From positions 623 to 64,622 of the forward strand of contig DASYUV010000252.1 of NCBI GenBank assembly GCA_036000865.1: 64,000 nucleotides of DNA, read 5' to 3'. The notes under the pieces are model-generated. The model worked only from the letters and a program-made list of their open reading frames with translations. It had not been told where the DNA came from and did not search any database. Positions 10,292-57,304 of the stretch are shown here, piece by piece (within the stretch, counting starts at the first letter, position 1; every line of letters starts with the position of its first letter). The stretch is from Candidatus Binatia bacterium (lineage in GTDB: Bacteria > Desulfobacterota > Binatia > UBA9968). Position numbers and translations under genes: made by a program.

Positions 10292-10321
10292 AAATGGTCG
10301 GGGCGAGTGGATTTGAACCAC
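10292..10321. repeat. Distal att direct repeat (orphan 3' fragment of tRNA-Pro)
   Basis: AAATGGTCGGGGCGAGTGGATTTGAACCAC is identical to 57275-57304. Nt 10295-10321 equal the CCA, acceptor 3' strand, T-loop and part of the T-stem of the tRNA-Pro at 57278-57354. Confidence 0.85.
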
Positions 10322-10872
10322 GCCACGGGAAAAACGAGGAAATCTAAAAAGACATGAACTGCCGCGCAATTAGTGGTGAATCTGGGCGGCGGCGCGCCAT
10401 CTGACTCAATCCAAAAAGCCTCCTGTTTTACCCGTCAAATCCCATAAAAACCGAAACCGTTTCGGTATTATGAAAATGTAAGCGAAGTCAGCTCATCCAC
10501 CGAATCCCGACCCACTGATTACGAAAAACAACCAGCCTCTTTCGAATCTAGCTCAACTGGAGAAATTGCAGAAAAAACAGAGCGGTTGAACCCGAGACAT
10601 TCGTGTTGTTATGGTTCAGTCGGATTGGTGTGGAAACATGACGGAAACAGCGCAACCGTCAAACTAACCATGTGTCAGCATGGTCCTGTCCGCAAGATCA
10701 AATTCAACCGAGTCCTACGACCCCTCCCAGTGTCAATTTATCCCTCCTTCGCACCAGAATTTATCACCTTAACTTAGCAGGTCGTATGAAATTACGTTTA
10801 CCAGCATTCTCATTTTTTCTAGTTTTGCTTTTAGCTCGCGATTATAAACGTTTACCATGTTAGTTAAATCGT

Positions 10873-10900
10873 TTGGAAATGATTAGGTCCTTTGTATATA
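10873..10900 (+). promoter_or_regulatory. Candidate sigma70-type promoter for the beta-1 gene
   Basis: TTGGAA-N16-TATATA about 25 nt upstream of the GTG start at 10926. This is a pattern match only. Confidence 0.25.
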
Positions 10901-10925
10901 AAGTGGGGTCGGGAGGAGCTAATTT

Positions 10926-11549
10926 GTGAAGAGGCCAGAGTGTATTAAGATTTTAGATCGAAAGCTGGGCGACGATGTACTCGTCGTCACTCCGACGGGC
11001 AGGACTTACATGTACTGGGAAGCAACCGGGAGAGAAGCCCAGATCTCACAGGTGAATTTGGGTCTTTGCATGCCGGTGGGGCTGGGATTGGCTTTGGCGC
11101 TTCCCCACCGCAAAGTAGTGGTACTGGACGGCGACGGCAATCTGCTCTTCAATCTCGCCTCCCTTGCGGATGCTGCCGTTCAGAATCCTGGAAACCTGAT
11201 CGACATCGTCTTTGACAACGAATGCTATCAGTCTTGCGACGCTCTTCCGTCCGCCACCTCCAAAGGCGTGGACTTGGAGAGCGTCGCTAGGAGTTGCGGC
11301 ATCAAAAATACGGCGACGGTCAAGGAATCCGGCGCCTTCGAAGAAGTCCTCGACAAAACCCTCCTGGACAACAAGCTGGCCGTCATCGTAGTGAAGGTCG
11401 AGCCGGGCGAGGAAAACGTTCCGCTTCCCCAGCAAGAGGGTAGGGAAAACAAATACCGGTTCGTCAGGCATATCGAGAAGACGGAAAACATCCGCATCAT
11501 CAATCCCTATTCGCGCCGGCGAAAAAAAGATGTCCTTTCGCAAGTATAG
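10926..11549 (+). CDS. Split ThDP-dependent decarboxylase, beta (PP-domain) subunit, ComE/phosphonopyruvate-decarboxylase-like (beta-1)
   Basis: GTG start after GGGAGGAG. It has the ThDP-Mg motif LDGDGN-x24-FDNE and the family-specific tail NKYRFVRHIEKTEN. Confidence 0.75.
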   Translation: MKRPECIKILDRKLGDDVLVVTPTGRTYMYWEATGREAQISQVNLGLCMPVGLGLALALPHRKVVVLDGDGNLLFNLASLADAAVQNPGNLIDIVFDNECYQSCDALPSATSKGVDLESVARSCGIKNTATVKESGAFEEVLDKTLLDNKLAVIVVKVEPGEENVPLPQQEGRENKYRFVRHIEKTENIRIINPYSRRRKKDVLSQV

Positions 11550-11628
11550 TTATGAATCGGATTGCGGGCCGAAAAAATTATCATGCGCCGCGGACTGTCG
11601 AGCCGGCAAATCCCGATCCGTTTAGAAA

Positions 11629-12666
11629 TTATTTTACGGTCTTTCGAACTTCTTGAAGTATGGAGTAATCCACCAGAGCAGCCAGAGTCACCGGAGGGGC
11701 ATTGACCGCCTGCTTTCTAGCGTCTTCGTAAGGCGCTTGCAAGTCCGCGAGATCAATCTCTCCGTTGGGAAGAAAAACCCTCATGGCGTCATCGTAAATA
11801 GCATCAAAATTTTCCGGCTTCACGTCCAGCCGCTTCGCAAAGACAGCTTTGACTCGATTCCGATCCGCCTTCATCACTGTCAAGGCTCGGTACAGGGCTC
11901 TTATGCTTTTGCGGATTTCTTCCCTCTTGTCAGTCATCGTCTGGACTCCGATGCCGAGGCCCCCCACCGGCTGCCTGAGATACTGACCGGTGAAGAGGAG
12001 CGGCTTCATGCCGGCTTTCTCCGCCGGGATTTTTTCAATGTTGTTCAAAATGGCCGACTCTACATGCCCCGAGATCAGCGCGGCGATGCGCGTCGGCCCG
12101 CCGCCTATGGCGAGTATTTTCACGTCCTTGCTGGGGTCCAAATTGAAGTGACGGAAGGCGGCTCTGGCATCGAAATCCGTGGCCGAGCCGTATCTTGAAA
12201 TAGCCACCGTCTTACCCTTTAACTGCTCGATGTTCATGATCCCGGGCTTAGTGACAAGATAAAAGAAACTGCCGTTGAAAAAGTTGATCACGGTTTTAAC
12301 CGGAGCCCCGATGGCCGCCGCTTTCACCACGCTGCTGATGCTGGATGCAAAGTCGATGTCTCCGGTTACCAGCCCTTTCATGGCGATGTCCGAGCGGATC
12401 ACCACAATTTTTGAATCAATTCCCTCCGCTTTTAGATATCCCAACTCCTCGGCGACAAAGATGGGCGAAGCCGATACATCCGTCGCCGAGACCGCAAATA
12501 CTACACGTTTGAGACTTTGAGCCGAAGCCGGCCTGGCTTTGAGAATAACAAAGGCGCAAAGCAATAGGAGCAGGAAAGCCGCAGGTCGGAACCCGTTTAC
12601 CCTGCGATTCGTCAAGGAGCTTATAGGCAGCGCGCCGCTATTTTCCACATGACTACTTTTTTGCAT
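11629..12666 (-). CDS. NMT1/SsuA-TauA-type periplasmic solute-binding protein (SBP-1)
   Basis: Signal peptide ...AAFLLLLLCAFVILKARPASA/QS and the AISRYGSATDF motif. An AGGAG RBS precedes it, 11 nt after alpha-1. Confidence 0.8.
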   Translation of the reverse strand: MQKSSHVENSGALPISSLTNRRVNGFRPAAFLLLLLCAFVILKARPASAQSLKRVVFAVSATDVSASPIFVAEELGYLKAEGIDSKIVVIRSDIAMKGLVTGDIDFASSISSVVKAAAIGAPVKTVINFFNGSFFYLVTKPGIMNIEQLKGKTVAISRYGSATDFDARAAFRHFNLDPSKDVKILAIGGGPTRIAALISGHVESAILNNIEKIPAEKAGMKPLLFTGQYLRQPVGGLGIGVQTMTDKREEIRKSIRALYRALTVMKADRNRVKAVFAKRLDVKPENFDAIYDDAMRVFLPNGEIDLADLQAPYEDARKQAVNAPPVTLAALVDYSILQEVRKTVK

Positions 12667-12677
12667 CTGTCACTCCT

Positions 12678-13187
12678 TTAGATTTCGTCAAAGATGATGT
12701 CCCCGGTTAGCAGCACGGCCGCGGGTTGCAGCCAAGCTTCGGCCGATAGTTGGGCTCGCTTTATCGCCCAGGCAATTTCCTCGACCTTGTCAACGACGGT
12801 ATAGGCAACGTGAAGATCTTTTAAAACCGGTTCGGTGGTGAAGTGATAAGGCCCCATGAACCAAATGCCATCGCCGAGACTGCCTCTATAGGGCACGACC
12901 ATCAGGACCGGTATGTTTTTCTGCATATTCAAAGTGGTCAATGGAAAGGCGGCAGCGAGTATCCCCGCCGTGGGGATAAGCAGAGCGGGTTTTTTTCCTC
13001 CCATCCATGCCCCGGCGCAAACACCGACTCCGATGCCTTCGTTGCTGACCGATACGCATTGGAAAGACTTATCGTTCATCGCGGTTCGCTGGACTTCGGC
13101 CCAATCCGAGTCCGGCAGTATGGAAATGAAATTTATCCCGGCCTGCTTTAGCCCGCTAATGCTCGCTTCGACAGCTTCTTTTTTCAT
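12678..13187 (-). CDS. Split ThDP-dependent decarboxylase, alpha (PYR-domain) subunit, ComD-like (alpha-1)
   Basis: 169 aa, with the VSNEGIGVGVCAG catalytic-Glu motif of ThDP pyrimidine-binding domains. Confidence 0.75.
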   Translation of the reverse strand: MKKEAVEASISGLKQAGINFISILPDSDWAEVQRTAMNDKSFQCVSVSNEGIGVGVCAGAWMGGKKPALLIPTAGILAAAFPLTTLNMQKNIPVLMVVPYRGSLGDGIWFMGPYHFTTEPVLKDLHVAYTVVDKVEEIAWAIKRAQLSAEAWLQPAAVLLTGDIIFDEI

Positions 13188-13239
13188 AGACCGCGGCTGT
13201 TCCGTTTCGAATTCATAAAATGAACGGCGATAGGGGTCA

Positions 13240-13851
13240 CTACTCTACAAGAGGCGATTGTGAGCGAAGCCGCAGGACCGGTTTTTTTTCTGTTTCTTCG
13301 ATATATCCGGCAAAGATGTATTTATTGCGCTTGCCGTCCATATTAAGGTGAGCAACTTTTACCGTCCCCGTTTCAATCTTGGCGACCAGAACGCTCAGTT
13401 CCTTCGCTTCAAGAAAAGCTTGAGCGTTCTTTTTGAATTCTTCCACGCTCGAAACGGTTAAAGTTTTTTTGATTCCGCTGGCGTCGGCGATCTTTTCCAG
13501 ATTGGTGTCTCCCGCCGTGGCGGAAGGGAGTCCTCCCGGGGATTCATAAGCTTCATTATCAAAGATGATGATCCGCAGGTTGGCTGGTTTGTGACGCGCC
13601 ACGTCCGCCAGCGAAGCCAGGTTCATGAGCATGTTTCCATCGCCGTCCAAAGCGATGACTCGTCTCTTCGGTAAAGCTAATGCCAAGCCGAGCGCCACCG
13701 GCGTGCATTGACCCAAGTTGACGTTGTAAAGGTTTGCCGGGGACGCGCGCACGGCGTGCAATTCCAGCGAGGTATTGCCCACGTTGGCAACCACGATGTC
13801 TTCGTCCGCAATGATGGAAGCAAGAATGTCGAGGCACTCATATCGTTTCAT
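13240..13851 (-). CDS. Split ThDP decarboxylase beta subunit (beta-2)
   Basis: The start MKRYECLD overlaps the alpha-2 stop as ATGA. It has LDGDGN-x24-FDNE and the tail NKYIFAGYIEETEKKPVLRLRS. Confidence 0.8.
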   Translation of the reverse strand: MKRYECLDILASIIADEDIVVANVGNTSLELHAVRASPANLYNVNLGQCTPVALGLALALPKRRVIALDGDGNMLMNLASLADVARHKPANLRIIIFDNEAYESPGGLPSATAGDTNLEKIADASGIKKTLTVSSVEEFKKNAQAFLEAKELSVLVAKIETGTVKVAHLNMDGKRNKYIFAGYIEETEKKPVLRLRSQSPLVE

Positions 13852-14348
13852 CGTAACGTCTCCCCGGAAAAAAGCACGCAGATCGGATTTTGCCATGCGA
13901 ACGACGATGCCACGGCATCTTTAATGGCCGTGTCGACCTCGGCAATTTCCCGCACGACGACGTGAGGGATCTGCAACGCCTCGAGGATCGGCTCGGTGGT
14001 AAATTTGTACGTCCGCATCACCCAAAAAGCGTCGCCAATGTCACCGCGATAGGGAACCAGCAATAATAACGGGATTCCCCACAGCTGATTCAGACTGCCC
14101 AGCGGCCAAACTGAAACCAGCAGTCCAGAAGTCGGTATAATCATGGCCGGCACCTTGCCGCCCAAATAAAGGCCAGCACATATTCCCACTCCAATGCCCT
14201 CATTGCTCACGGGTATATAAGTGAATGTCGGGTCTTCGGCGATCATCCTCTGGACGTCGGCAAAACCATGATCAGGCAGAATGGCCACCGAATCCACGTG
14301 AGCCTCTTTAAGCCCCTTTACAATTGCGCTGCTCGTCTTTGCGTTCAT
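13848..14348 (-). CDS. Split ThDP decarboxylase alpha subunit (alpha-2)
   Basis: 166 aa with the VSNEGIGVGICAG motif. It is collinear with alpha-3 (31939-32439) over its full length. Confidence 0.8.
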   Translation of the reverse strand: MNAKTSSAIVKGLKEAHVDSVAILPDHGFADVQRMIAEDPTFTYIPVSNEGIGVGICAGLYLGGKVPAMIIPTSGLLVSVWPLGSLNQLWGIPLLLLVPYRGDIGDAFWVMRTYKFTTEPILEALQIPHVVVREIAEVDTAIKDAVASSFAWQNPICVLFSGETLR

Positions 14349-14382
14349 AACGTTTCACCTCAAACTCATTTACCCACTTCGG

Positions 14383-15870
14383 TCAATGTGCACGCTTGGG
14401 AAGGATATGGCTCCACTTTTGTTTTACTTTTTCCTTGTAGGCCGGGCTTGCGGAACTCACTTGAGGAAATTCCTTGCGCCACGAATAAGGCCGGCACGCA
14501 TCAATAATGATGCATGAGGTGATGAAATCGTTCTTCGCTTTTTTCTCAGGTGAAAGTCTGGGGTTTAGAGAACTGGCCGCAATGTCTAAAATCTCGGAGG
14601 CTGTTTTCGGATCCCAGCGCGAGGCAACGGCCCACAACAGCTCATTGACGTTCGTAATATCTATGTCGTCGTCCACCACGATAACCATTCTCGTGTCTCT
14701 TCCGCCATCGCGGGTTGATAAAACGCCAAGCGCCGCTTGTTTGGCATGGCCCGGGTATCGCTGCCTTATGGAAACCGCGGCGACAAAGCGGCCGTGGCGC
14801 GGGAACCACACGCCGGTAACGTCAGGCACACCGGACCGTTCGAGGGTGGCCCAAATATTCGCTGCGCGAACGTATCTGACCAGTTCGCTATTTAAATAGG
14901 TCTTGAGGGGTGGCGAGCCGGTGATGATCGGATCGTCACGGTGATAGATGCGCCGCACTTTGATGACCGGCGCTTTTTCCGGGCCGGAGGCATAATAACC
15001 CGGCCACTCACCGAACGGTCCTTCCACGCGCGATTCGGTTTCCGGCGGCGGCGCAAAACCTTCAAGGACGATTTCCGACAATGCCGGCATGGGCAAGCCG
15101 GTGATGCCAGCGATTGTGGTAGGAATCGGCCGGCCCAGAAATCCTCCCAAAAAATCGTATTCGCTCACGCCCCACGGCAATCCCAGTCCGGTCGCCATCA
15201 TGAAAGACGGCGGCATGCCGCAGACAACCAGAAAGGGACAGTCCTTTCCCTTTTCCCAGTACTTCCTCGCGATCAAATCGCCGTGCTTGCCGGGGAAGAT
15301 GTTGACGCCGACCGTTTGTTCATCGTGAAGCTGGACTCGATAAGTTCCGACGTTCACATACCCGGAGTCCGGATCTTTACATACCACGGCATTGAACGTT
15401 CCAATGTATCGGCCGCCGTCCAACTCATGCCATTTCGGAGTTGGGAACTTGAGGAGATCGACGCCCGCCGCTTCGAGAATGTTCTCCAAGATCGGCGCCT
15501 CTCCTGTCACCACCGGAGCAATGGGGCTTAAACTATTTAATCGCTCTTTCACTTCTCTAGCCAATTCGACGCCTCTTAATCCGGGCCGCATGCCGATGGC
15601 TAGTGACTCGCGCAGGGGCGACTTCAAAATATTACTCAAGACGCGATATCCCCGCTCATAGCCCGGGATGTCATCAAAGAGCAAAGCCGGGGTGCTTTCC
15701 GATTCCGCGAAGATCTCTGTGATCGCGCCGATTTCCAAATCCCAGTGCGCTCCCTCAATCACCTGAAGCTCACCACCGTTTTCAATCCGGTCCAAGAAAC
15801 ACCGCAGATCGAGCGCTGGATCGCCGCTGCTCTCGGCGCGTACTTGAGTCGTCTCACCAGCAGTTTTCAT
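14383..15870 (-). CDS. UbiD-family (prFMN-dependent) decarboxylase (UbiD-1)
   Basis: EGPFGEWPGYYAS motif and overall UbiD length and layout. The ATG at 15870 was chosen over the upstream start at 15912. Confidence 0.8.
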   Translation of the reverse strand: MKTAGETTQVRAESSGDPALDLRCFLDRIENGGELQVIEGAHWDLEIGAITEIFAESESTPALLFDDIPGYERGYRVLSNILKSPLRESLAIGMRPGLRGVELAREVKERLNSLSPIAPVVTGEAPILENILEAAGVDLLKFPTPKWHELDGGRYIGTFNAVVCKDPDSGYVNVGTYRVQLHDEQTVGVNIFPGKHGDLIARKYWEKGKDCPFLVVCGMPPSFMMATGLGLPWGVSEYDFLGGFLGRPIPTTIAGITGLPMPALSEIVLEGFAPPPETESRVEGPFGEWPGYYASGPEKAPVIKVRRIYHRDDPIITGSPPLKTYLNSELVRYVRAANIWATLERSGVPDVTGVWFPRHGRFVAAVSIRQRYPGHAKQAALGVLSTRDGGRDTRMVIVVDDDIDITNVNELLWAVASRWDPKTASEILDIAASSLNPRLSPEKKAKNDFITSCIIIDACRPYSWRKEFPQVSSASPAYKEKVKQKWSHILPKRAH

Positions 15871-15924
15871 GATTTCCCTTGTCCGCGTTTCAGGCAAACC
15901 GAGCGGCGGCAAAGCGGAGCCGAT

Positions 15925-16917
15925 TCATTTTGCAGAGGCTCGCGCCACCCTCAGCAACGACCAATCCACCAAGTCATCCAATCCTACGGGTGGCGGTTTG
16001 GTGGCCGCCTTGCGCGCGTCTTCATAGGGAGCGACTAAATCGCTCGCTGGAATCTCGCCCTCGGGCAGAAACACTTTCAACATAGACTCATAGGCGCTAT
16101 CGAACTGCTTCGCGCTAATGGCCAATTCTTTGTCAAAAAAATCTTTTATCGCGTTCTTGTCATTTTTCAGGACCGTTAACGCCCGATATACCGCTCTGAG
16201 CGATTTCACTAAAAAATCCCGATTCGTCCGAATCTTCTCGATGGAAGTTCCCAATCCGCCCACAGGTTGTTTATTAAACTGCCCGGTAGAAAGGAGCGCT
16301 TTCATGCCGGCTTTTTCAGCGTGTTCCTTTTCACCTTCCGTAAGGATTGCCCCATCGACCCGCCCGGAGACCAGTGAAGTAAGACGGTTCGTTCCTCCGC
16401 CCACCGGAAGGATGGTAACATCGCGTCCGGCCTCCAAAGAAAAGTGCTTCAAGACCGCTCTCGCGTCGAAATCAGTAGCGGATCCGTATCGCGAAATAGC
16501 AATGGTTTTTTTTCTCATCATCTTTATGTCGGTAATATCCGGCTTGGTAACGAGGTAGAAGAACCCGCCGTTAAAAAAACTGACGACGATTTTTACCGGG
16601 ATACCGACCGCGGCCGCCTTCGTAACGCTACTTAAGCTCCCGGCAAAGTCGGCGTCGCCCGAGATGAGGCTCGCTATTTGAAGATCCGACCTCATCACCA
16701 CGATTCGTGGTTCCAATCCCTCCTTCTTGAAGTAACCCAACCGATCCGCCAACCAGACGGGAGCCGATGACAAATCTTTTGTCGACACGGTGATCACGAC
16801 ATAATTTTTTTGCGTTTGGGCGGCGCTCGGTCGCGCTGTCCCGGCGATCACCAGCGTCAGCCAAACAATAAAGGGAACGCCGGTGATGACTAGCTTGCGA
16901 AATCCAGGTGCACTCAT
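15925..16917 (-). CDS. NMT1/SsuA-type solute-binding protein (SBP-2)
   Basis: Signal peptide ...VPFIVWLTLVIAGTARPSAA/QT and the AISRYGSATDF motif. It is a close paralogue of SBP-1. Its start overlaps the Rieske oxygenase stop (ATGA). Confidence 0.8.
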   Translation of the reverse strand: MSAPGFRKLVITGVPFIVWLTLVIAGTARPSAAQTQKNYVVITVSTKDLSSAPVWLADRLGYFKKEGLEPRIVVMRSDLQIASLISGDADFAGSLSSVTKAAAVGIPVKIVVSFFNGGFFYLVTKPDITDIKMMRKKTIAISRYGSATDFDARAVLKHFSLEAGRDVTILPVGGGTNRLTSLVSGRVDGAILTEGEKEHAEKAGMKALLSTGQFNKQPVGGLGTSIEKIRTNRDFLVKSLRAVYRALTVLKNDKNAIKDFFDKELAISAKQFDSAYESMLKVFLPEGEIPASDLVAPYEDARKAATKPPPVGLDDLVDWSLLRVARASAK

Positions 16918-18137: not shown

Positions 18138-18167
18138 GAATTTCCTCGCTCGGCAATTCCTTGGCTC

Positions 18168-19004: not shown

Positions 19005-19061
19005 CGCAAAACTCCTAACTCGCAAAATAGACCAATGACGAGAACAGAGCCGGTAATTTTT

Positions 19062-19463: not shown

Positions 19464-19487
19464 CGTTTTGATCCTCCTTCCTAGGCG

Positions 19488-23938: not shown

Positions 23939-23951
23939 AGGACGCGACACC

Positions 23952-47479: not shown

Positions 47480-47588
47480 AAGCTTTGTCTTCTCGCGTGG
47501 TGAAATTCTTGTCGAAGGCACCTATTATTCAGGATTAACAGCACTTTCGGAGCGAATACTTTCGGGCGAAGCGGCAGGCCTCTGCGGT

Positions 47589-47617
47589 GTAGGGGCGGGT
47601 TTCAAACCCGCCCCTAC
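47589..47617. repeat. Perfect GC-rich hairpin GTAGGGGCGGG-TTTCAAA-CCCGCCCCTAC (REP-type; possible terminator or mRNA stabiliser)
   Basis: 11-bp perfect stem and 7-nt loop, 47 nt downstream of the SBP-9 stop. There is no flanking U-tract. Confidence 0.65.
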
Positions 47618-47663
47618 AAAGAATGTGGTGTTAAAAAAGGAACACATGGCAAGCACCACCACA

Positions 47664-48680: not shown

Positions 48681-48729
48681 GTCGATGCCCTCTCGTCTGT
48701 GAGCCTACCTCCAGCTTACGGCTATCGCA

Positions 48730-50160: not shown

Positions 50161-50191
50161 GGTTTAGCTCCTTATTAGGTATTTACTACTC

Positions 50192-50270
50192 CTGTCATTT
50201 CGAGCCCTTCGGCAAGGCTCAGGACAGGCGCGAGAAATCCAAGATCCCTCGCTTTCACTCCGGATGACAG
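50192..50270. repeat. REP/MITE-like element (CTGTCATTTCGAG...CGCGAGAAATC...CGGATGACAG)
   Basis: Terminal inverted repeats CTGTCAT.../...ATGACAG. The internal CCCTTCGGCAAGGCTCAGGACAGG segment resembles widespread small palindromic elements of environmental genomes. Confidence 0.6.
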
Positions 50271-50318
50271 CCAATGTACAGCCGTTGCAACATAGTATCT
50301 TGGGAGAGAAGTCTAGCC

Positions 50319-50663
50319 TTACGTCCCCAGTTGTTTGTTCGCATCGACGCTGACAAAAATTTTCCCGTCTTCTTCCGTGACGGTGTAGCGCTCTATCTTA
50401 TAGCCCGTGCAGTTCAATCCTTCTCCGGTTTCGAGATCGAAAGTGAAGGCGTGCTGGCCACATCGGATCATCTTGTTCCAGACGTTGCCTTTTTCCAAAG
50501 GCGCTCCTTCATGGGGGCATCGCCTTTGAATGGCGTAGAGGTTGCCGGAGCAGCGCAAAACCAAAACCTCTTTGCCATCGGGCAGCTTGGTGATGAAGAA
50601 GCCCTCTTCCTCGAGGGCGGAAAGTTGTCCGACAAAAATGGCTTCCACTAGTCGCTCCGCCAA
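50319..50663 (-). CDS. Rieske [2Fe-2S] ferredoxin-like protein
   Basis: 114 aa with the CPH-x16-CGQH Rieske motif. Confidence 0.8.
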   Translation of the reverse strand: MAERLVEAIFVGQLSALEEEGFFITKLPDGKEVLVLRCSGNLYAIQRRCPHEGAPLEKGNVWNKMIRCGQHAFTFDLETGEGLNCTGYKIERYTVTEEDGKIFVSVDANKQLGT

Positions 50664-50735
50664 AACACTTAATGCAGATTCTTTTGCGCGTTTTCGATTT
50701 CCTAGTGGAAGCTAAACTTTCTGTCAAGGCGGCGG

Positions 50736-51728
50736 CTACCGGTATAGCTTCTGAACCAAGCCGCTTGCTTCCAACTCTTTCAGAAGGCGGATATCGGCAA
50801 ACATTTCCGGCTTGAGGCCTTTGACTTTGGGATCTTTCTTGGCGATTTCGTTGAGCACATTCTGAATGCCCTTCATATCCGGATAGGGGACTCTGGGAAT
50901 TATATCTTGGTAATGGCGATAGGTTTCGTCGATGAGAGTTGCATCCCCGAGCCGGGCGAAGGCGTCAAGCGACTTCATGCTGGCTTCTTTTTGCGTCTTG
51001 AAAAAGTGGATTCCCTCGACCATCGCTTTCATGATGCGGCGGGTTAGCTCCTCGTTTTTCGATACATTGGAAGCGGTGCTGACAATGCACGTATTCGGAT
51101 AGGCAAGATTAAGTTGCTCGGGAGTGGCGATTTCGTTGAATCCTGACTTGCGGGCAACGATATCGGCAGGGGGTCCGACAATCGTTCCGTGCACGGTGCC
51201 GCTCTTAAGAGCGGTGAGGCGTGCCGGTTGACTGCCGATCTGGAGAATTGCCACGTCTCGATCGGGAACAAGCCCCCATTTATCGAGGGCATAACGAACG
51301 ACAAAATCGGTTGAAGAGCCGAAGCGGCTTACGCCCAATTTTTTTCCTTTCAGGTCCTGGGGCTTCTTAACCTCCGGCGCAGTGATGATACTGAAATCGA
51401 TAAGATTGATCAGACCTCCCAGTATCACCGTATCGGCGCCCTGCAAGCGGGCCAGTATCGAAGGTTCACCGCTCACCACCGCAATGGGCAGATCACCTGC
51501 AATGAGGGCTTGAATAATTCCGCTTCCGCCGGCGATAAGTACAAGGCTGACATCGAGGCCGTTTTTCGAGAAAATGCCAGCATCCCCAATGACCCGAAGA
51601 ATTGCCTGGGAACCCGAGATGGAGGAATATCCGAGATTGATACGGATTGGTTTTTCCTGGGTTGCGCCGGGGAGAGGAAATAAAAAAGCGACCCATAGGG
51701 CAATTATTGCGGAGGTGAGATATCTCAT
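50736..51728 (-). CDS. NMT1/SsuA-type solute-binding protein (SBP-10)
   Basis: ATG at 51728 after GGAGG. Signal peptide MRYLTSAIIALWVAFLFPLPGAT/QE, the GVSRFGSSTDF motif and the LEASGLVQKLY tail. Confidence 0.8.
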   Translation of the reverse strand: MRYLTSAIIALWVAFLFPLPGATQEKPIRINLGYSSISGSQAILRVIGDAGIFSKNGLDVSLVLIAGGSGIIQALIAGDLPIAVVSGEPSILARLQGADTVILGGLINLIDFSIITAPEVKKPQDLKGKKLGVSRFGSSTDFVVRYALDKWGLVPDRDVAILQIGSQPARLTALKSGTVHGTIVGPPADIVARKSGFNEIATPEQLNLAYPNTCIVSTASNVSKNEELTRRIMKAMVEGIHFFKTQKEASMKSLDAFARLGDATLIDETYRHYQDIIPRVPYPDMKGIQNVLNEIAKKDPKVKGLKPEMFADIRLLKELEASGLVQKLYR

Positions 51729-51896
51729 ACGACCTCCAGTCCGTCGGCTCAATAAGCTGCAGCGCTTCGTGCCCTGATTCTCCAGATGTATATCACTGCT
51801 TCCTCCACTCATGTCAATTTTTGAAGGTCCGGAGGATCCCTGGCCGCGGTTTCTAGGTCTGAGCGAAATCCAGGTAAAGTGATGCAGCAGAGTGCC

Positions 51897-51925
51897 TTGA
51901 CATCGGTGCTAGCTTTTTTTATACG
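51897..51925 (+). promoter_or_regulatory. Candidate sigma70-type promoter for alpha-5/beta-5
   Basis: TTGACA-N17-TATACG ending 19 nt before the GTG start at 51944. This is a pattern match only. Confidence 0.35.
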
Positions 51926-51943
51926 CAGTTCATTGGTGCAACG

Positions 51944-52450
51944 GTGGAAGCGGAGCTTGCAGCGAGAATTGTCGGCGCGTTGAAAGAGGCGGGGATCAGT
52001 TTTGTTTCGTATCTGCCAGAAACAAGACTTAGCCAAATCATGCCATCGCTGCGCGAAGACCCGTCTTTCATGCTGGTCCCTGTTGCCAATGAATCGGAGG
52101 GGGTTTCGATAGCCGCAGGCGCCTCATTAGGCGGAAGGCCGGCTGCGGTGTATATGGAGGGCAGCGGTGTTTACATTTCGTCCTACAACCTCCTGGTGCT
52201 TGGCAAGCGGCTCGGCGTTCCCATGCTGCTGCTCGTCGCATATTACGGCAGCATCCTGGATCAGCGAAACAGTTTTCTCTACGCTTTTCCCGGCATTCAC
52301 CTAGTTCCAATCCTCCAATCACTCGATATCCAGTATGAAGTTTTCCAAAACGGGGACTTTTTGGAGGACAAGATTAAAGGGGCCGTGAAGATGATGCACG
52401 CCATCAAGCAGCCGGTGGCCCTCCTCTTTACAGGAGCATTCACGGCATGA
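51944..52450 (+). CDS. Split ThDP decarboxylase alpha subunit (alpha-5, most divergent)
   Basis: 168 aa with a VANESEGVSIAAG motif at the catalytic-Glu position. GTG start. Confidence 0.7.
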   Translation: MEAELAARIVGALKEAGISFVSYLPETRLSQIMPSLREDPSFMLVPVANESEGVSIAAGASLGGRPAAVYMEGSGVYISSYNLLVLGKRLGVPMLLLVAYYGSILDQRNSFLYAFPGIHLVPILQSLDIQYEVFQNGDFLEDKIKGAVKMMHAIKQPVALLFTGAFTA

Positions 52451-53046
52451 ATCGTTACGACTGTTTTGAGTTTCTGGCACCGCTGATCAAGGACCAGCTT
52501 GTGATTGGCTCTCTCAGCGGGCAACGGGTCGAGTGGGGTCACCTTTGCCGGCACGAAGGTAACTTGTTAGTGGCCTCCATGGGAGCCGCTTTGGGGGTCG
52601 GCGTAGGCCTCGCGTTGGTCCTGCCCCATCGGAAAGTTATTGTTTTGGAATCTGATGGGAGCCTCCTGCTTTCGCTCTACAATCTTCCGACTTTAGGTAA
52701 TTTGAGCCTTTCCAACCTTGCAGTTTTCGTATTCGACAACGAGGTGTACAGCGGGACGCGGATCAGCGAGCCGAGCGCAACTGCCGGAAAAACTGATTTA
52801 GCTGGCGTGGCTCGGAGTTGCGGTATCGAACGAGCGATGACGGTGCGCGAGATCGATTCTTTTAAGCGTGAATCGAAAAAAGCTCTAGACGAAAATGTGC
52901 TTCGTTTTCTTGTGTGTAAAGTAGATCCGACAACCGGGCATCGCCAAATCGAGCGACCAAACGAAGATCTATGGGAGCATAAATATCGTTTTGTGAGATA
53001 TCTAGAAAGAACCGAAGGCAAAGAAATTTTCAAAGGTCGTGGCTAA
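52447..53046 (+). CDS. Split ThDP decarboxylase beta subunit (beta-5)
   Basis: ATGA overlap with alpha-5. It has LESDGS-x24-FDNE and the tail HKYRFVRYLERTEG. Confidence 0.75.
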   Translation: MNRYDCFEFLAPLIKDQLVIGSLSGQRVEWGHLCRHEGNLLVASMGAALGVGVGLALVLPHRKVIVLESDGSLLLSLYNLPTLGNLSLSNLAVFVFDNEVYSGTRISEPSATAGKTDLAGVARSCGIERAMTVREIDSFKRESKKALDENVLRFLVCKVDPTTGHRQIERPNEDLWEHKYRFVRYLERTEGKEIFKGRG

Positions 53047-53069
53047 AGTCGTGGGTGTGACAGACGTAT

Positions 53070-54095
53070 TCAGATTTTCTTTTGAACTACCTTCGGCATC
53101 ACCTTTGTAGCGATGAGGCTGAGTGAATGCCCGCGATTCGGACCGATAATTTCCCAGACAATGGGGAGCTTGAGGCCTGAGCCAAGAAATTGTCTAAGGC
53201 CTTCGACCACTTGATCGGGTGTGCCAGCGATCGTCACTTTGCGCACCAGCGAATCACTGAGTTCCGAAGCCGCTTTCTCCAAGCCGAACCTCTCGACGTT
53301 GTCTTTAACGAGAGCGATCTCCGCTGCACTTACACCCGCTTGGCGGAGCATCTGTGAATGCCTCGTTGGAAGTTTCTGAGCAACGAAGCGCTTGGCCGAG
53401 TCCAAAGCTCTTTTTTCGTCCTCATCGACGCCCACGAGCAGGTATGCTGAGACAGCGAAATTTTCTACCGTTCTTCCGGAAAGCCTGAGTCCTTCCTCGA
53501 CGAAGGGCATTGCATATTCAATGAAGCCAGGCGTGCAGGGATAGTTGAAGAGAACCCCGTCCGCATGCTGACCGGCCAGTCTAAGCATAGCCGGTCCAGT
53601 TGCGCCGACATAGATGAGTAAATCTCTGGGCGGGTCGAGTTCTAGCTGACTACCTGGCGAGGGAATTCTAAACTTAGCGCCTTCGTATTGGACCAATTGC
53701 CCGCTCAATAGTCCTTTTAGTAGGTCAATCGCTTCCTTCACCACTTGCGTCGCGCCTGCGCGCTCGAACCCGTGCTTCCGCAGCGCATTTTTAACTGTAC
53801 CTACCCCCAGGATCACCCTGCCACGCGCTACTTCATCAAGTGAAGCCGCGTCCATGGCTAGTAGCGCGGGGTGTTTTGTGTGAGGACTGAGGATGCCTAA
53901 ACCTATCCGTATCCTGCTGGTTGAGAGCGCGATGACGGTAGCCCTGACAACTGCGCTTCTAGAGTGGTACCCCTCTGAGAGCCAGAAACTGTGGAAGCCC
54001 AAACCCTCAGCCTCCTTAGCCAGCGCTAAAGTCTCGCTCATCGATGTTGTGCCGTCGATCCCAACGCCTAGATTTTCGAAACCTTTGACAATCAT
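53070..54095 (-). CDS. LLM-class (luciferase-like) flavin/F420-dependent oxidoreductase
   Basis: 341 aa. The GFHSFWLSEGY...RIGLGILSP...ILGVG pattern is typical of luciferase-like monooxygenase/F420 reductases. Confidence 0.75.
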   Translation of the reverse strand: MIVKGFENLGVGIDGTTSMSETLALAKEAEGLGFHSFWLSEGYHSRSAVVRATVIALSTSRIRIGLGILSPHTKHPALLAMDAASLDEVARGRVILGVGTVKNALRKHGFERAGATQVVKEAIDLLKGLLSGQLVQYEGAKFRIPSPGSQLELDPPRDLLIYVGATGPAMLRLAGQHADGVLFNYPCTPGFIEYAMPFVEEGLRLSGRTVENFAVSAYLLVGVDEDEKRALDSAKRFVAQKLPTRHSQMLRQAGVSAAEIALVKDNVERFGLEKAASELSDSLVRKVTIAGTPDQVVEGLRQFLGSGLKLPIVWEIIGPNRGHSLSLIATKVMPKVVQKKI

Positions 54096-54125
54096 CTCAA
54101 AGTAAATCCACGGTACCCAAATCGA

Positions 54126-54449
54126 TCATTGCCCATTGCGCGCCATCTGTTCGACATCGGCAATCGTGAGCTTGTCCATCCGGAAGGCCCGGCGCGGGTC
54201 CCACTCGAGGACTTCCATAGACCGAATACCTCGGACGTGGTGTGAGTCTTGGGCGGCGATGGTTCTTGCTTCCTCAAGGCTAGATGCGAGCATGACATAG
54301 ATACCATAGGCGCCATCGGTGGTCGGTCCGGAAAACAGCAGGCGTCCCGCTTTATGCTGCTCCTCTAACCACAGGCGATGCTCGTCGTAATAGGTCTGTT
54401 TGTTTTCTTCCATTTCCGGTTTCGATCGCGAAAGTACGATGTACCACAT
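54126..54449 (-). CDS. YciI-family protein
   Basis: 107 aa. The layout (MWYIVL...H..WL......G.LL.SGP...) is typical of the YciI-like dimeric alpha-beta barrel. Confidence 0.65.
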   Translation of the reverse strand: MWYIVLSRSKPEMEENKQTYYDEHRLWLEEQHKAGRLLFSGPTTDGAYGIYVMLASSLEEARTIAAQDSHHVRGIRSMEVLEWDPRRAFRMDKLTIADVEQMARNGQ

Positions 54450-54516
54450 GATTGCTTTTCGTTTTTTTCCTGAGTGGAGCTTAGAACTTCCCGGCTAACG
54501 TGCGCAGTCGCAAAAT

Positions 54517-55359
54517 TCAGTTATGGCGTAACGTGAATTCGAACTCTTGTCGTTGGGCTTTGCCGTAAATTTCTCGAAATTCTTCCTGTGATTTATATTT
54601 GATTTTCGGGATGAGCTTGCCGCGGACGCTTACCCGCAATGGTGCTTGGTCGAATGGATAGGGATCAACGATGACCGTATTGCGGTCAACGATCCGAAGT
54701 TGAATCTGTCCGTCTTCTTCACCGGGGTTCACCGGCGTTGGTTTAATCGTCGAGCCGTAATAAGCCTTACCTTCCCTTGTGTGCGAGCCGGCGGCGGCCA
54801 CCGCCGTGATGTCAAAGTTAGAACAGAAAAACAGCGACAGCCGGTCGAAAACCTGCATCAAAAGATAATTGTGCCAAATCTGCTCTTTGCTTGTGAATCC
54901 GGCGTATTGTTCCATTCTACTCAGTTTGTCGATCATGTCCTTGTGCGTGGGCTCGCGCTCAGAAATGAATTTCTGAGAATAGGGATCGTCGCGGTCGACC
55001 ATGGTGGGCATGGTGCCATAGCGCTTCTGCGGCAGGCCGACGCCATGCATGCTGACCACCAAGCCGGCGTAAAGATCCCGCGCGATGACGTTGTCGATGG
55101 CTTTGCCGTAGAAATTCGACCGGAATTCGCGCGGCGTGCGGGTGAACGGTATGGGCACTCCGTGATCATCGATGGAAGGATAAATGTCCCAATCCCACCA
55201 GCCGTTATCATGGGTTTCCGCCGCCAGCACCATCGATTGATAGGGTTTCGGCTTGGCGAATCGGTCGTTACCCCAATGAGCGGCGAATTGCCCGGCGAGA
55301 TCGCCGTGGTCGTTTTGCGATATCATTCGATAGTATTCAGAGTTTTCCGAGATAATCAT
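54517..55359 (-). CDS. DUF3891-like protein (tentative), copy 1
   Basis: QNDHGDLAGQFAAHWGN ... AAETHDNGWWDWD gives an H...HD-type signature. It is a paralogue of the upstream gene. Confidence 0.5.
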   Translation of the reverse strand: MIISENSEYYRMISQNDHGDLAGQFAAHWGNDRFAKPKPYQSMVLAAETHDNGWWDWDIYPSIDDHGVPIPFTRTPREFRSNFYGKAIDNVIARDLYAGLVVSMHGVGLPQKRYGTMPTMVDRDDPYSQKFISEREPTHKDMIDKLSRMEQYAGFTSKEQIWHNYLLMQVFDRLSLFFCSNFDITAVAAAGSHTREGKAYYGSTIKPTPVNPGEEDGQIQLRIVDRNTVIVDPYPFDQAPLRVSVRGKLIPKIKYKSQEEFREIYGKAQRQEFEFTLRHN

Positions 55360-55468
55360 GGGGAACTCCTTTCGTTCGCGGCAAAGTTTGCGGTTCGCGG
55401 TCGAACCAGAACGCGCTAGTCATTTTATAGACTGTAATCCGTCTTAGAGCCACGCTAGCTATTTCGCC

Positions 55469-56314
55469 TTAAGCCGACGCGAGGGTATGCGCGACCGTGA
55501 TGCGCTCAGCGCGGTAGAACTCGCCGAGAAAGTCTTCACCGTCTTTGTACGTCCGGTTCGGCACCAACCGCGCGCTGAACGAAACCGGCAGCGGATCGAT
55601 ATCAAAAGGATAGGGTCGCAGGACGGCTTTGTTTTCGCCGACTGTATCGATACTGATTTTTACCGCCGGTTGGCCGTGTTTCGTCGGTACGTCGATATCG
55701 TTTAACGAATGGGTGGGGCCGAGCTTGCGCGCCTTGCTATTCAGCGGATAACGATTGCAGACAAACTGCGCCAATTGATCGAAGACCTCCATGTACTCGT
55801 AGTTGGTCCATATCTGCTCGTCGGAACAATGCTGCTTGAACTGTTCGGATTGGCGCAGCTGTCCGAGTAGTTTTAGACGCAGCTCTTCCTGGTGATCGAC
55901 GTACGCCTTCACCCGGGGGTCACCGGTGCGGTCGGGAGGATAGCTGTATTTGCCATAACCGGCGTTCATCAGCGCCACCCCGTGCATTGCCATCAACATG
56001 GCCGAGTAAGGATCGCGGGTTAGGACCCGATCCACCGAGTTTTTATAGAAATCGAGCCGGAGTTGCCCGAGATATTTGAAACTGCCGTCGTGGTAGTCGA
56101 GAGGAAACCCCTTGTCGTTGAGCGTCGACGGTTTCATTTCCCATTCCCACCAGCCAATATCATGCTCGGTGGCGGCCAATACGACGGAGGAATAAGGCTC
56201 GGGCCGATCGAAGTTTGGGTTGCCCCAATGAGCCGCGAAGTAGCCCGCCACCCGCGAGTGGTCGATCTGCAGCGCCAAAATTATCCGCGTATCGTCGTAT
56301 GGATAGGCCATCAT
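55469..56314 (-). CDS. DUF3891-like protein (tentative), copy 2
   Basis: QIDHSRVAGYFAAHWGN ... AATEHDIGWWEWE. It is collinear with copy 1. Confidence 0.5.
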   Translation of the reverse strand: MMAYPYDDTRIILALQIDHSRVAGYFAAHWGNPNFDRPEPYSSVVLAATEHDIGWWEWEMKPSTLNDKGFPLDYHDGSFKYLGQLRLDFYKNSVDRVLTRDPYSAMLMAMHGVALMNAGYGKYSYPPDRTGDPRVKAYVDHQEELRLKLLGQLRQSEQFKQHCSDEQIWTNYEYMEVFDQLAQFVCNRYPLNSKARKLGPTHSLNDIDVPTKHGQPAVKISIDTVGENKAVLRPYPFDIDPLPVSFSARLVPNRTYKDGEDFLGEFYRAERITVAHTLASA

Positions 56315-56370
56315 AATTTTTCTACCTCCGCAAAATTAATTTGTCCTGATTCTGAACTTCGCCTGGCTAC

Positions 56371-57000
56371 TTACGGTTTCTTCACTGATAGCTCGTTTCG
56401 CGTTTCTTTGACAAACTGAAAATCGACAACGCGAGACAAGGCAACGCGGTTTTTGATGGCTCCAGTCTGTCGCGCAATTTCTAGATCCTTCTCAATCACT
56501 TCATCCGCTACGAACCCGTTCGGCGGATACGCCTCAACCATTTGGCCATGAGCTTGCTCCGCTTGTTCGACGCGAATCTTAAACCACTTGACCATGATGC
56601 CGGCGACTTCTTTCTTGTTTTTTTGCGTCTCTGAGGAAGTCGATGCCTCGGAGAGTTGCTCGTACCGCCCGGCGCAAGAGATCCGGTTTTTTTGCGATGT
56701 TCTCGTCTGAAGTGCCCAGGCCAGCCATGGGCAATCGCATAACATCGCCGAAGTACGCAAGCTTTCGCAAGCCGGCTTTCTCGGCCACCGTTTGCCACGG
56801 CACCGAAAATCACCGCTGCGTCGACGTGGCCGCTTTGTATCGCTTGAATGCTCGTATTGTGATCTCCGGTTACAATCAAAGCGACGTTCTTATCGGCATC
56901 CAAATTTTTCTGCGCCATGAATTCCTTGGTCATGAGATGAACGGAGCGGCCACGCGAGCCACGCCACTGGCAGCGTCCGCAGTATCGCCGTCCCGATCCA
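56371..57000 (-). pseudogene. NMT1/SsuA-type solute-binding protein pseudogene (5'-truncated, two frameshifts)
   Basis: Three overlapping minus-strand ORFs in three frames (56508-56933, 56579-56803 and 56371-56760) concatenate into the C-terminal two-thirds of an SBP-1/2-like protein (..AEKAGLRK..AGLGTS..). One shift lies in an A7 run (56618-56624). Confidence 0.7.
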
Positions 57001-57019
57001 CGGGGCGCTCGGGATTAGA

Positions 57020-57277
57020 GCCCGGAAATTCTACGCGACCCGTCACATGTTCATCTCGGTCGCGTTATCACATGGAGTCAATATCAAATGGCTGGCCGAG
57101 TATTGCGGAACATCAGTGGCAATGATCGAAAAGCACTACGGGCGATATATCAAAAGCGATTCGCAAGAGCAGTTAAAGAGGCTTTTCGGCGGCAAAACCG
57201 AAACCTTTTCCGAAACGCTACGCGATGAGAATGGTGCTACAAAGCCCCAAGTAGCGAAAAAAATTGGCGGAAAGAAA
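57020..57277 (+). pseudogene. Tyrosine recombinase (integrase) C-terminal remnant
   Basis: Only the last catalytic segment is present: ..YATRHMFISVALSHGVNIKWLAEYCGTSVAMIEKHYGRYI (Arg-His box and Tyr nucleophile). An in-frame TAG at 57017 leaves no N-terminal or core-binding domains. The frame runs on into the tRNA. Confidence 0.7.
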
Positions 57278-57304
57278 TGGTCGGGGCGAGTGGATTTGAA
57301 CCAC
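57275..57304. repeat. tRNA-proximal att direct repeat
   Basis: Identical 30-mer to 10292-10321. It overlaps the 3' 27 nt of tRNA-Pro. Confidence 0.85.

Follow-up and report, generated by a model that had tools for sequence, protein, structure and literature searches.

Several described systems stand close to the locus considered here. ICEclc of Pseudomonas knackmussii B13 is a catabolic island in a tRNA-Gly gene, which is self-transmissible and carries an intact integrase together with conjugation genes. P4-like, or satellite-type, small integrative elements contain an integrase gene (int), a regulator, an excisionase (AlpA/HTH_17) and a primase, and the target of Myxococcus phage Mx8 is tRNA-Asp. 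Genomic islands integrated into tDNA are defined as a group in Islander (Hudson, Lau and Williams 2015, PMC4383910), in which 'J' is one class of crossover site. According to the accounts of the Mx8 intP/attP work (Tojo et al. 1996; Magrini et al. 1999) given in PMC6070905 and PMC4383910, the attP core of this phage lies in the 3′ end of its integrase gene, and integration into a tRNA gene replaces the C-terminal tail of Int.

The locus belongs to a Candidatus Binatia bacterium, and was analysed in a 64-kb stretch of DNA (the window), in which positions 10292–57304, about 47 kb, are very probably a genomic island that was inserted into tRNA-Pro(CGG) by a site-specific integrase and later immobilised by deletion. 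A sequence-only reading had already taken this segment for an island at the 3′ end of the tRNA gene, and it is borne out by empty sites in relatives, by cargo that no relative shares and by an intact sister element in contig L029. The features of the window are as follows (position, strand, feature, with the basis in brackets):

8989–10254, plus: M48 (HtpX/Ste24-type) peptidase, last chromosomal gene left of the island (Pfam Peptidase_M48_N and Peptidase_M48)
10282–10321, minus: attL, displaced orphan 3′ fragment of tRNA-Pro (30-mer at 10292–10321) with about 10 imperfectly matching nt of the spacer that originally lay downstream of the tRNA (repeat search)
10322–10466, plus: left end of the element, candidate P′ arm of attP (motif search and alignment)
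10926–56314, no strand: cargo, 43 open genes (Pfam, NCBIfam, paralogue clustering, gene calls on population contigs)
56371–56933, minus: binding-protein pseudogene without about 150–170 N-terminal codons, two frameshifts (blastx against island paralogues)
56934–57004, no strand: putative deletion junction, 5′-truncated binding-protein gene head to head with 5′-truncated int (truncated genes and comparison with L029)
57005–57343, plus: tyrosine-integrase remnant, last 111 of about 423–431 codons (alignment to full-length integrases)
57195–57216, plus: P-side motif AAACCGAAACCTTTTCCGAAAC, with the heptamer CCGAAAC in two direct copies spaced by 12 nt (motif search)
57275–57304, minus: attR core, the 30-mer copy that is the functional tRNA 3′ end (repeat search and ARAGORN)
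57278–57354, minus: tRNA-Pro(CGG), intact, 77 nt, CCA encoded (ARAGORN)
57507–58172, minus: rpe, first chromosomal gene right of the tRNA, then rsmB, fmt, def and priA (Pfam; synteny kept in relatives)

The direct repeat and the insertion site in relatives

An exact search of the window found exactly two copies of the 30-mer AAATGGTCGGGGCGAGTGGATTTGAACCAC, at 10292–10321 and 57275–57304, and no third copy appeared even when 3 mismatches were allowed. The only tRNA that ARAGORN finds in the window is tRNA-Pro(cgg), at 57278–57354 on the minus strand, and by these coordinates the right-hand copy covers the final 27 nt of the tRNA, T-stem position 50 to CCA, and 3 nt past it. The tRNA sequence is identical to that of L014, where the site is empty, and to those of L012, L021 and L001. 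The left-hand copy begins 37 nt past the stop of the M48 peptidase, the ORF of which ends at 10254. Past the 30-mer, positions 10282–10291 (GGCGAGAAAA) and 57266–57274 (GGCGGAAAG) differ by one 1-nt indel and one mismatch. The perfect 30-bp repeat, the identity of the second copy with the 3′ end of an intact minus-strand tRNA-Pro, the orphan nature of the first copy and the imperfect similarity of about 10 nt beyond the tRNA end had all been claimed beforehand, and each was recovered.

The left flank carries korAB, clpS, clpA and M48 and the right flank rpe, rsmB, fmt, def and priA by Pfam, in agreement with the earlier description of the genes outside the repeats as housekeeping. The empty site that had been proposed as a check (M48, tRNA-Pro, rpe) is present in four relatives (L013, L014, L025 and L031), in the order clpA, M48, about 45–55 nt, tRNA-Pro, rpe, rsmB, fmt, def and priA, and the window flanks, when joined by removing 10322–57304, are colinear with these sites. 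An orphan fragment lies directly after M48 in L007, L019, L020, L023, L029, L030, L091 and L092, and is degenerate in L006 and L037. In about ten other Binatia contigs the inserts at the site differ in size (4.2, 9.2 and >10 kb) and are unrelated in cargo. The closest relative, L006, is 95.6% identical across 7.9 kb of the left flank, and its similarity to the window ends within the orphan fragment, after which different genes follow. The tRNA-Pro insertion site is highly variable among relatives. In all loci examined, the 30-mer repeat is confined to the tRNA and the position directly after M48, and no relative carries any of the island cargo.

It could be objected, from the general risk of metagenome assemblies and nothing else, that the repeat is a chance match or an artefact of contigs misjoined through tRNA-like sequence. 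The probability of this is negligible: such a repeat arose in none of 100 shuffles, with 0 expected by chance, and both island junctions were found in contigs of four independent metagenome assemblies (samples 3300036860, 3300036861, 3300036863 and 3300036864) with 99.7–99.97% identity, because of which the island is not an assembly chimera. Furthermore, a 52.8-kb contig (L003) and a 19.4-kb contig (L089), judging from their lengths and the parts that were read, would jointly tile the island.

Like the islands of Islander, the one in the window has an intact tRNA gene at one end, a displaced 3′ fragment in direct orientation (a 30/30 match) at the other and DNA derived from an integrase gene beside the tRNA, its size is within 2–200 kb, and its identity block runs from the T-stem to past the 3′ end, as in the 'J' class (PMC4383910). 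Unlike them, it has an integrase remnant of 111 codons, an uncultured Binatia host and no compositional anomaly, a trait that supports such islands without being required of them. Since the remnant alone gives no Pfam integrase hit at E<0.01, an Islander-like integrase filter (PMC4383910) would probably reject it.

The integrase remnant and the ends of the element

The tyrosine-integrase remnant lies directly inside the tRNA-proximal repeat, as the sequence-only reading had placed it: positions 57005–57340 (+) align to residues 313–423 of the 423-aa integrase P0122, with 63% identity, and the remnant is 76.6% identical to residues 320–430 of L029 Int. Its homology to full-length integrases is strong, with a bit score of 146. 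The ...YATRH... motif and the catalytic-Tyr region MIEKHYGRY are preserved in it, and its ORF reads across the att core to a stop within the tRNA gene (end 57343). Arm-DNA-bind_2 and Phage_integrase are found in the integrases P0121, P0122 and P0125, accompanied by a SAM-like domain in P0121 and P0122. Compared with L029 int, dN is 0.17 and dS 1.18, and the resulting dN/dS of about 0.15 means that int was under selection for most of its history. By tblastn with full-length integrases, no part of the window encodes the N-terminal 312 residues of Int, to which Arg-I and Lys belong. A functional tyrosine recombinase (PF00589) was rejected, as only the part from ...YATRH... to Tyr is left and the complete catalytic domain is missing; so was an SSV-type split int, as the same tblastn gave nothing near 10322 or elsewhere in the window.

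In L029, an intact element of 9.19 kb occupies the same site and is bounded by the same perfect repeat. It encodes a 431-aa integrase, an HTH regulator, an excisionase-like HTH_17 protein and a primase with a DUF3631-type C-terminal region; Pfam and PHROGs detect no phage structural genes in it, and IMG/VR contains no close relatives. The P4-like order of modules is found in this sister element (9.2 kb), while the window, unlike P4-like elements, keeps only the 3′ end of int. We know of no helper phage or capsid-redirecting gene for the Binatia element.

In the window, int is truncated inside the island, at about 56934–57004. The neighbouring pseudogene matches residues 175–341 of a 345-aa binding protein in blastx, spread over three frames, and has a weak Phosphonate-bd hit in Pfam (profile positions 125–168). 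In the intact L029 element, the place upstream of int is taken by the HTH regulator, excisionase and primase genes. That the truncated pseudogene abuts the int remnant suggests that the mobility module was lost in one deletion, by which the island became fixed; a single event is deduced from the head-to-head position of the two truncated genes and from the L029 element, which is intact. Along with about 310 int codons, this later deletion would have taken the regulator/excisionase/primase module and the 5′ part of a binding-protein gene in the cargo, and would have left an immobile island.

The truncation point of int varies by locus (residue 313 in the window, 277 in L001, 328 in L012, 355 in L007 and about 380 in L036 and L067), which bears on the idea that the 47 kb is ancestral to the clade and that the empty-site relatives lost it by precise excision. 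Occupied sites are commoner than empty ones among close relatives, and precise excision through an active integrase would give exactly the empty sites observed. However, with cargo common to no relative and truncation points that differ among loci, such a history is highly improbable, and it would leave the segment an integrase-borne island all the same.

The left end of the element holds a 12-codon Lys-rich continuation of the int frame, with its stop at 10355–10357, and the palindromic motif AAACCGAAACCGTTTC at 10448–10463. The end motif occurs only twice in the window, against 0 expected. The P′ motif is separated from the core by 129 nt in the window, L029, L019 and L023, and likewise in L006 with one mismatch; in an alignment, the left ends are conserved as far as the motif and divergent past it. 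The P-side motif sits in the int tail coding ...KTETFSET..., and the P-side heptamers of L029 (15755+ and 15767+) have the same geometry. The motif AAACCGAAACC[GT]TTTC is restricted to the two element ends, with the spacing seen in L029. The CCGAAAC heptamer pairs, 65–80 nt from the core on one side and 129 nt on the other, are regarded as candidate arm-type sites; the P′ copy may alternatively act as a terminator, and on the minus strand it does score as a terminator-like hairpin.

When attP is reconstructed, the int frame stays open for 12 more codons, into 10322–10357, and in the left-end alignment it is open for 6–10 codons past the core in L029, L019, L023, L007 and L030. Since the int reading frame crosses the attP core, the tail of the integrase changes upon integration, as can be read directly from the sequence. 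That is to say, the frame is open through the core in both the integrated and the reconstructed attP states, as in Mx8 so far as the accounts cited above describe it. Unlike Mx8, the Binatia element has no phage structural genes, only the last 10–20 codons cross the core, and the two are not closely related in sequence; the best-matching integrases of phages, at about 30% identity, belong to phages of Pseudomonas and Ralstonia. No attP or circular form was found in metagenomes.

The following course of integration is proposed. The attP of an integrative element, whose tyrosine integrase was of the lambda type with arm-binding, SAM-like and catalytic domains, recombined with the 3′ part of tRNA-Pro(CGG), and attP brought the final 27 nt of the tRNA in copy, along with a few downstream bases. 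The crossover rebuilt the tRNA from element DNA at the right end, giving attR, and the original 3′ fragment was left stranded beside the M48 peptidase gene as attL. The anatomy of the locus and the empty sites in relatives show these integration steps.

Cargo, composition and the time of its arrival

The island contains 43 open genes, one pseudogene and the integrase remnant. The cargo includes ten SsuA/NMT1-like binding proteins, all without any transporter partner; 5+5 ComD/ComE-like split TPP decarboxylase subunits and three UbiD decarboxylases; two XDH/CODH-type Mo-hydroxylase large subunits with CoxG, FAD and 2Fe-2S subunits; four hydantoinase-like and two TRZ/ATZ amidohydrolases; a Rieske oxygenase, a small Rieske protein, an IclR and a VOC protein; and a beta-hydroxyacid dehydrogenase, an F420/LLM oxidoreductase, a YCII protein and two DUF3891 proteins. 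By paralogue clustering, most of the cargo consists of old paralogues with 23–70% identity. The earlier count of 43 intact genes stands, whereas their description as catabolic holds at family level only, because no cargo protein reaches an NCBIfam equivalog cut-off. At that level, the cargo would serve Mo-dependent hydroxylation, the hydrolysis of rings or amides, and (de)carboxylation, with many solute-binding-like proteins besides, and it probably extends the breakdown of N-heterocyclic or aromatic compounds by the host.

The island is like ICEclc in being a large degradative block at a tRNA 3′ end, with a tyrosine integrase and a short direct repeat, and unlike it in lacking relaxase and T4SS genes and in having a destroyed integrase. 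Among the island ORFs, Pfam matches no transposase, relaxase, T4SS or phage structural family. Two further candidates were rejected: an ICE, as the island ORFs lack Pfam families for relaxase, coupling protein and type IV secretion, and a prophage, as capsid, terminase, portal and tail genes are absent from the window.

The comparison of composition inside and outside the island, also proposed earlier, brought out no difference: the flanks have a GC of 0.540 and a GC3 of 0.635, compared with 0.538 and 0.614 for the island (p = 0.16 for GC3), the tetranucleotide profile of the island correlates with that of the flanks (0.929) as well as the profiles of the two flanks do with each other, and codon usage (RSCU) is indistinguishable. 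Composition thus gives no support to the island, yet does not refute it, because empty sites exist. As the composition is like that of the host, the donor was probably another member of the same lineage.

The same composition is compatible with another course of events, in which a small element like the 9-kb one of L029 integrated, and 46 kb of cargo came later by stepwise insertions or by a homologous locus swap via clpA-M48 and rpe-rsmB, with no 47-kb integrase event in the lineage. The old paralogue families, which form no compact operon set, are in keeping with it, as is the absence of metabolic cargo from the L029 element, the only intact family member seen; wholly different cargo beside 95.6% identical flanks is also what a recombination-driven plasticity zone would be expected to show. 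Nevertheless, the conserved P′ arm lies directly against the cargo on the left and the int remnant on the right, no transposase, IS element or secondary att site is found inside the island, and the 30-bp repeat is still perfect. Moreover, metabolic genes directly follow the P′ arm in L006 and L020 as well, which suggests that cargo normally rides inside such elements. Later arrival of the cargo is considered unlikely, and integrase-mediated insertion followed by immobilisation is preferred, with the qualification that delivery of the whole 47 kb in one event can only be deduced, because no backbone gene except the 3′ end of int survives in the window.

Significance for Binatota

As a genomic island, that of the window is of an ordinary type; it comes from a phylum that has been little studied, and leaves the current understanding of how genomic islands work unchanged. 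What it documents is that genes are transferred horizontally at a defined hot spot in Binatota. In the main genomic survey of this uncultured phylum (PMC8262859), the words integrase, mobile, horizontal, island and prophage are all absent. Composition-based island finders would miss islands of this kind, and an integrase-based filter probably misses the one in the window too. The insertion site also explains why many MAG contigs end just past the M48 peptidase gene. It may be speculated, as a possible but somewhat doubtful extension, that an undescribed family of small integrative elements with primase and excisionase generally carries large blocks of host-like metabolic genes for Binatia, at a single tRNA-Pro(CGG) hot spot, and that the window island is a recently immobilised load whose unusual cargo, with binding-protein-like genes paired with split TPP decarboxylases, UbiD enzymes and cyclic amidohydrolases, is an uncharacterised pathway for the breakdown of N-heterocycles or aromatic acids. 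Strain-level catabolic differences in Binatota can ride on tRNA-targeting elements.

The tRNA-Pro repeat and its surroundings

The stretch 10292-57304 is a genomic island that a tyrosine integrase inserted into a tRNA gene, and it appears to have been immobilised afterwards by a deletion. The placing of such an island at the 3′ end of tRNA-Pro(CGG) by the sequence-only reading is upheld, and all the factual statements of that reading hold.

First of all, the perfect 30-bp direct repeat (AAATGGTCGGGGCGAGTGGATTTGAACCAC) is confirmed at 10292-10321 and 57275-57304; there is no third copy in the window with up to 3 mismatches allowed, and a match to it was found in 0 of 100 dinucleotide-preserving shuffles. 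Since the sole tRNA of the window, tRNA-Pro(cgg) at 57278-57354 on the minus strand, overlaps 57275-57304, the right copy is indeed the genuine 3′ end of an intact tRNA gene, that is, its last 27 nt (from T-stem position 50 to the encoded CCA) and 3 nt downstream. The left copy is an orphan fragment (attL) beginning 37 nt past the stop of the M48 peptidase gene (8989-10254), as had been described, and the imperfect similarity reported for about 10 nt beyond the tRNA end was also recovered: outside the 30-mer, GGCGAGAAAA (10282-10291) and GGCGGAAAG (57266-57274) differ by one indel and one mismatch. Metagenome contigs match the window across both junctions with 99.7-99.97% identity; the M48 protein occurs with identical sequence on JGI metagenome contigs (3300036860, 3300036861 and 3300036864), and the DUF3891 protein of the right end on contigs from four samples. 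The genes outside the repeats are as follows:

Left flank: MoCF-domain gene, isochorismatase, korB/korA, CBS protein, clpS, clpA, M48 peptidase
Right flank, beyond the tRNA: rpe, rsmB, fmt, def, priA

The housekeeping character ascribed to these flanks is borne out by korB/korA, clpS and clpA on the left and by rpe, rsmB, fmt, def and priA on the right. In the spacer between tRNA-Pro and rpe (57400-57500), there are repeated AAATT(C/T)CA(G/A)AT-like units (caaattacaaattccagat ... ggaatctgaaatttgaaatctggaatc), partly conserved in two related loci (L013 and L014), which may be a tRNA promoter or UP-like region.

Empty and occupied sites in relatives

With the M48 protein as query, 80 loci were recovered from the GTDB species representatives. 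Almost all of them are MAGs labelled Candidatus Binatia or "Deltaproteobacteria bacterium", the lineage being Candidatus Binatota, and the occupancy of the site was mapped on related loci by tblastn and ARAGORN. The empty site that relatives had been expected to show is present in L013, L014, L025 and L031, in the order clpA, M48, 45-55 nt, tRNA-Pro(cgg), rpe, rsmB, fmt, def, priA, and the window minus 10322-57304 is colinear with them. An orphan tRNA fragment directly follows M48 in L007, L019, L020, L023, L029, L030, L091 and L092, and a degenerate one is found in L006 and L037. In L006, the closest relative, the left flank is 95.6% identical over 7.9 kb, and the similarity stops inside the orphan fragment. 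The inserts are of very different sizes and contents:

Inserts between M48 and tRNA-Pro in related loci
L052: 0.9 kb; PEP-mutase/ICL-family protein
L036, L067: 1.2 kb; short integrase tail, in L036 also an outer-membrane beta-barrel protein
L037: 2.1 kb; degenerate orphan fragment
L021: 2.7 kb; Na+/H+ exchanger
L007: 4.2 kb; frameshifted PQQ dehydrogenase and integrase remnant
L029: 9.2 kb; intact element
L012: 9.6 kb; PLD-like, ferritin-like and OmpA-family proteins and integrase remnant
L016, L020: >10 kb; in L020 acyl-CoA dehydrogenases, enoyl-CoA hydratase and SDR
L006: >10 kb; LysR, CoxG, Mo-hydroxylase
L001: right-hand part of insert; fatty-acid desaturases, sulfotransferase, IS110

The integrase is truncated at residue 313 in the window, 277 in L001, 328 in L012, 355 in L007 and about 380 in L036 and L067; since these points differ between loci, the decay of the integrase was independent. 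Throughout the class, tRNA-Pro(cgg) is a hot spot of integration.

Several side observations concern the contigs themselves. Many MAG contigs end 0.4-3.6 kb past M48 (L008-L011, L017-L019, L022, L023, L026, L030, L041 and L091), as would be expected if assemblies break where the boundary of an island varies between strains. L023 has a second, inverted tRNA-Pro 3′ fragment (11612-11635, minus strand) 300 nt from its orphan att (11308-11331, plus strand), near the contig end and with a palindromic layout around the arm motif described below; either an inversion or a fold-back in the assembly could account for it. L006 (DASPXM010000210.1) and L047 were deposited as "Verrucomicrobiia bacterium" MAGs, with 99% ClpA and 95.6% nucleotide identity to the window, and other related contigs are labelled Syntrophobacter, Solirubrobacterales or Pyrinomonadaceae; these non-Binatia labels are probably binning or labelling errors.

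The integrase, its truncation and the ends of the element

On the plus strand, a frame that is open from about 57005 crosses the att core and reaches a stop at 57341-57343 inside the tRNA gene. Pfam gave no match for this remnant alone. A word-indexed search with it returned 184 homologues, and the 120 matches listed were all of 57-170 aa, many of the short homologues coming from contigs of a few kb or having no start codon; full-length relatives of about 420 aa were recovered by an exhaustive HMMER scan. Arm-DNA-bind_2 and Phage_integrase domains were identified in three of these, with a SAM-like domain in two of them. The tyrosine-integrase remnant proposed just inside the tRNA-proximal repeat is thus identified by its alignment to residues 313-423 of P0122, a 423-aa homologue whose gene is known from a 1.6-kb contig, at 63% identity. 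A conserved mini-protein was also considered and was dropped, as the HMMER scan gave integrases of about 420 aa and many of the short matches were from small contigs or had no start codon. An SSV-type split integrase was excluded as well, since tblastn with full-length integrases over the whole window found no N-terminal part or other integrase match. With only residues 313-423 found in the window, about three quarters of the int gene is therefore gone.

Directly upstream of the remnant, on the opposite strand, lies a binding-protein pseudogene (56371-56933) with two frameshifts, from which about 150-170 N-terminal codons are absent. Because two 5′-truncated genes, the pseudogene and int, here meet head to head, the layout points to one deletion event as the origin of the junction. 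What an intact element looks like can be seen in the sister element of L029, 9.19 kb long, which lies between the same perfect repeat (6642-6669 and 15832-15859):

14605-15900 region: full-length integrase, 431 aa
HTH_3 regulator
HTH_17 excisionase-like protein
CHC2 and DUF3631 primase

Its regulator, excisionase and primase genes occupy exactly the position of the deletion junction of the window, where no remnants of these three were found in a search of the window; phage structural genes are absent from the L029 element. The window remnant is 76.6% identical to the C-terminus of the L029 integrase, with dN 0.17 against dS 1.18, and therefore purifying selection acted on int through most of its evolution. 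A viral search with the L029 integrase gave no close relatives, its matches being only 26-42% identical, and the best integrase matches in GenBank phages are at about 30%. In L002, a frameshifted integrase of the same family (9300-10383) adjoins tRNA-Met(cat) upstream of rpoD-dnaG, and a second one (1-723; 418 aa, clipped by the locus end) lies 9 kb from it; the targets of the family therefore include other tRNAs, and tandem copies can occur.

In the reconstructed attP of the window, the int frame reads on for another 12 codons after the core (...NHATGKTRKSKKT, stop at 10355-10357), whereas in the integrated state it ends inside the tRNA gene (...LNHRLHGPEPCALPS). The tail past the core is Lys-rich, with 6-10 codons in five other loci and 6-13 codons overall in reconstructed attP; that of L029 is at 6670-6700. 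Moreover, many members of the integrase family terminate in the translated 3′ ends of several other tRNAs. Since several loci and many members read across the core, this is a family trait, shared with phage Mx8, whose int is known to read across attP likewise (PMC6070905, PMC4383910).

Near both ends of the island is the motif AAACCGAAACC[GT]TTTC, which occurs twice in the window against 0 expected:

10448-10463: left copy, 129 nt from the attL core
57195-57210 (heptamer pair 57195-57216): right copy, 65 nt before the attR core

L029 carries both copies at identical distances (6798-6813 and 15752-15773), and the left copy recurs with one mismatch each in L019, L023 and L006, with the 129-nt spacing in L019 and L023. 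In A1, the alignment of attL-proximal DNA from eight loci, conservation extends as far as the motif, and the sequences are unrelated beyond it. The CCGAAAC heptamer within the motif is paired at both ends, in inverted orientation on the left (the P′ arm) and in direct orientation, 12 nt apart, on the right (the P arm). Given the arm-binding domain of the full-length family members, the heptamers are candidates for arm-type sites; the left copy scores as a terminator-like hairpin of the minus strand as well. The right pair falls in int-tail codons (...KTETFSET...), where other family members have xETxxET or TVTPTVT, and a peptide repeat kept while its sequence changes hints at DNA-level constraint. 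A scan of metagenomes for attP or circular forms (core, about 129 nt, arm motif) gave three matches and no attP form: L091 and L092 are attL-type junctions beside M48, and on L093 (1.4 kb) no flank, integrase or backbone protein was matched. The same pattern was absent from viral contigs.

Cargo, composition and meaning

The 43 intact genes counted by the sequence-only reading between the repeats were all found as open genes:

SsuA/NMT1-like solute-binding proteins: 10
Split TPP-decarboxylase subunits: 5 ComD-like and 5 ComE-like
UbiD decarboxylases: 3
Xanthine-dehydrogenase/CODH-type molybdenum subunits: 2, with CoxG, FAD and 2Fe-2S partners
Amidohydrolases: 4 hydantoinase-like and 2 TRZ/ATZ-type
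Rieske oxygenase and small Rieske protein
IclR, VOC protein, beta-hydroxyacid dehydrogenase, F420/LLM oxidoreductase, YCII
DUF3891 proteins: 2

The term "catabolic" holds as a family-level inference, because every cargo protein stays below the NCBIfam equivalog cut-offs. Among the genes between the repeats, there was no match to a transposase, relaxase, secretion or phage structural family. Eight paralogue families take in 33 of the 43 genes, and with identities of 23-70% they are therefore old paralogues and not recent duplications. In the cargo (10926-56314), the ten binding-protein genes and one pseudogene are interleaved with TPP-subunit pairs, UbiDs and amidohydrolases; neither an ABC permease or ATPase nor UbiX was seen there, and perhaps the binding-protein-like genes do not belong to transporters.

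None of the 80 related loci shares the cargo, with only distant paralogues in L006, L042 and L045. The 46 kb of cargo may have come inside the element in a single event; alternatively, it could have accumulated after integration, or been brought in by exchange through homologous recombination in the conserved flanks. The comparison of composition inside and outside the repeats, which the sequence-only reading had suggested, gave no difference, and the island is unmarked by any of the four measures: GC is 0.540 in the flanks and 0.538 in the island, GC3 is 0.635 and 0.614 (p = 0.16), the RSCU correlation between them is 0.89, and the tetranucleotide correlation of flank with island (0.929) equals that of flank with flank (0.929). 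Such host-like composition would follow from a donor within the same lineage or from a long stay in the host.

The tRNA-integrated island is a well-known kind (PMC4383910), and the words integrase, mobile, horizontal, island and prophage are all absent from the main Binatota genomic survey (PMC8262859). What is new is the host phylum, the hot spot and the make-up of the cargo.
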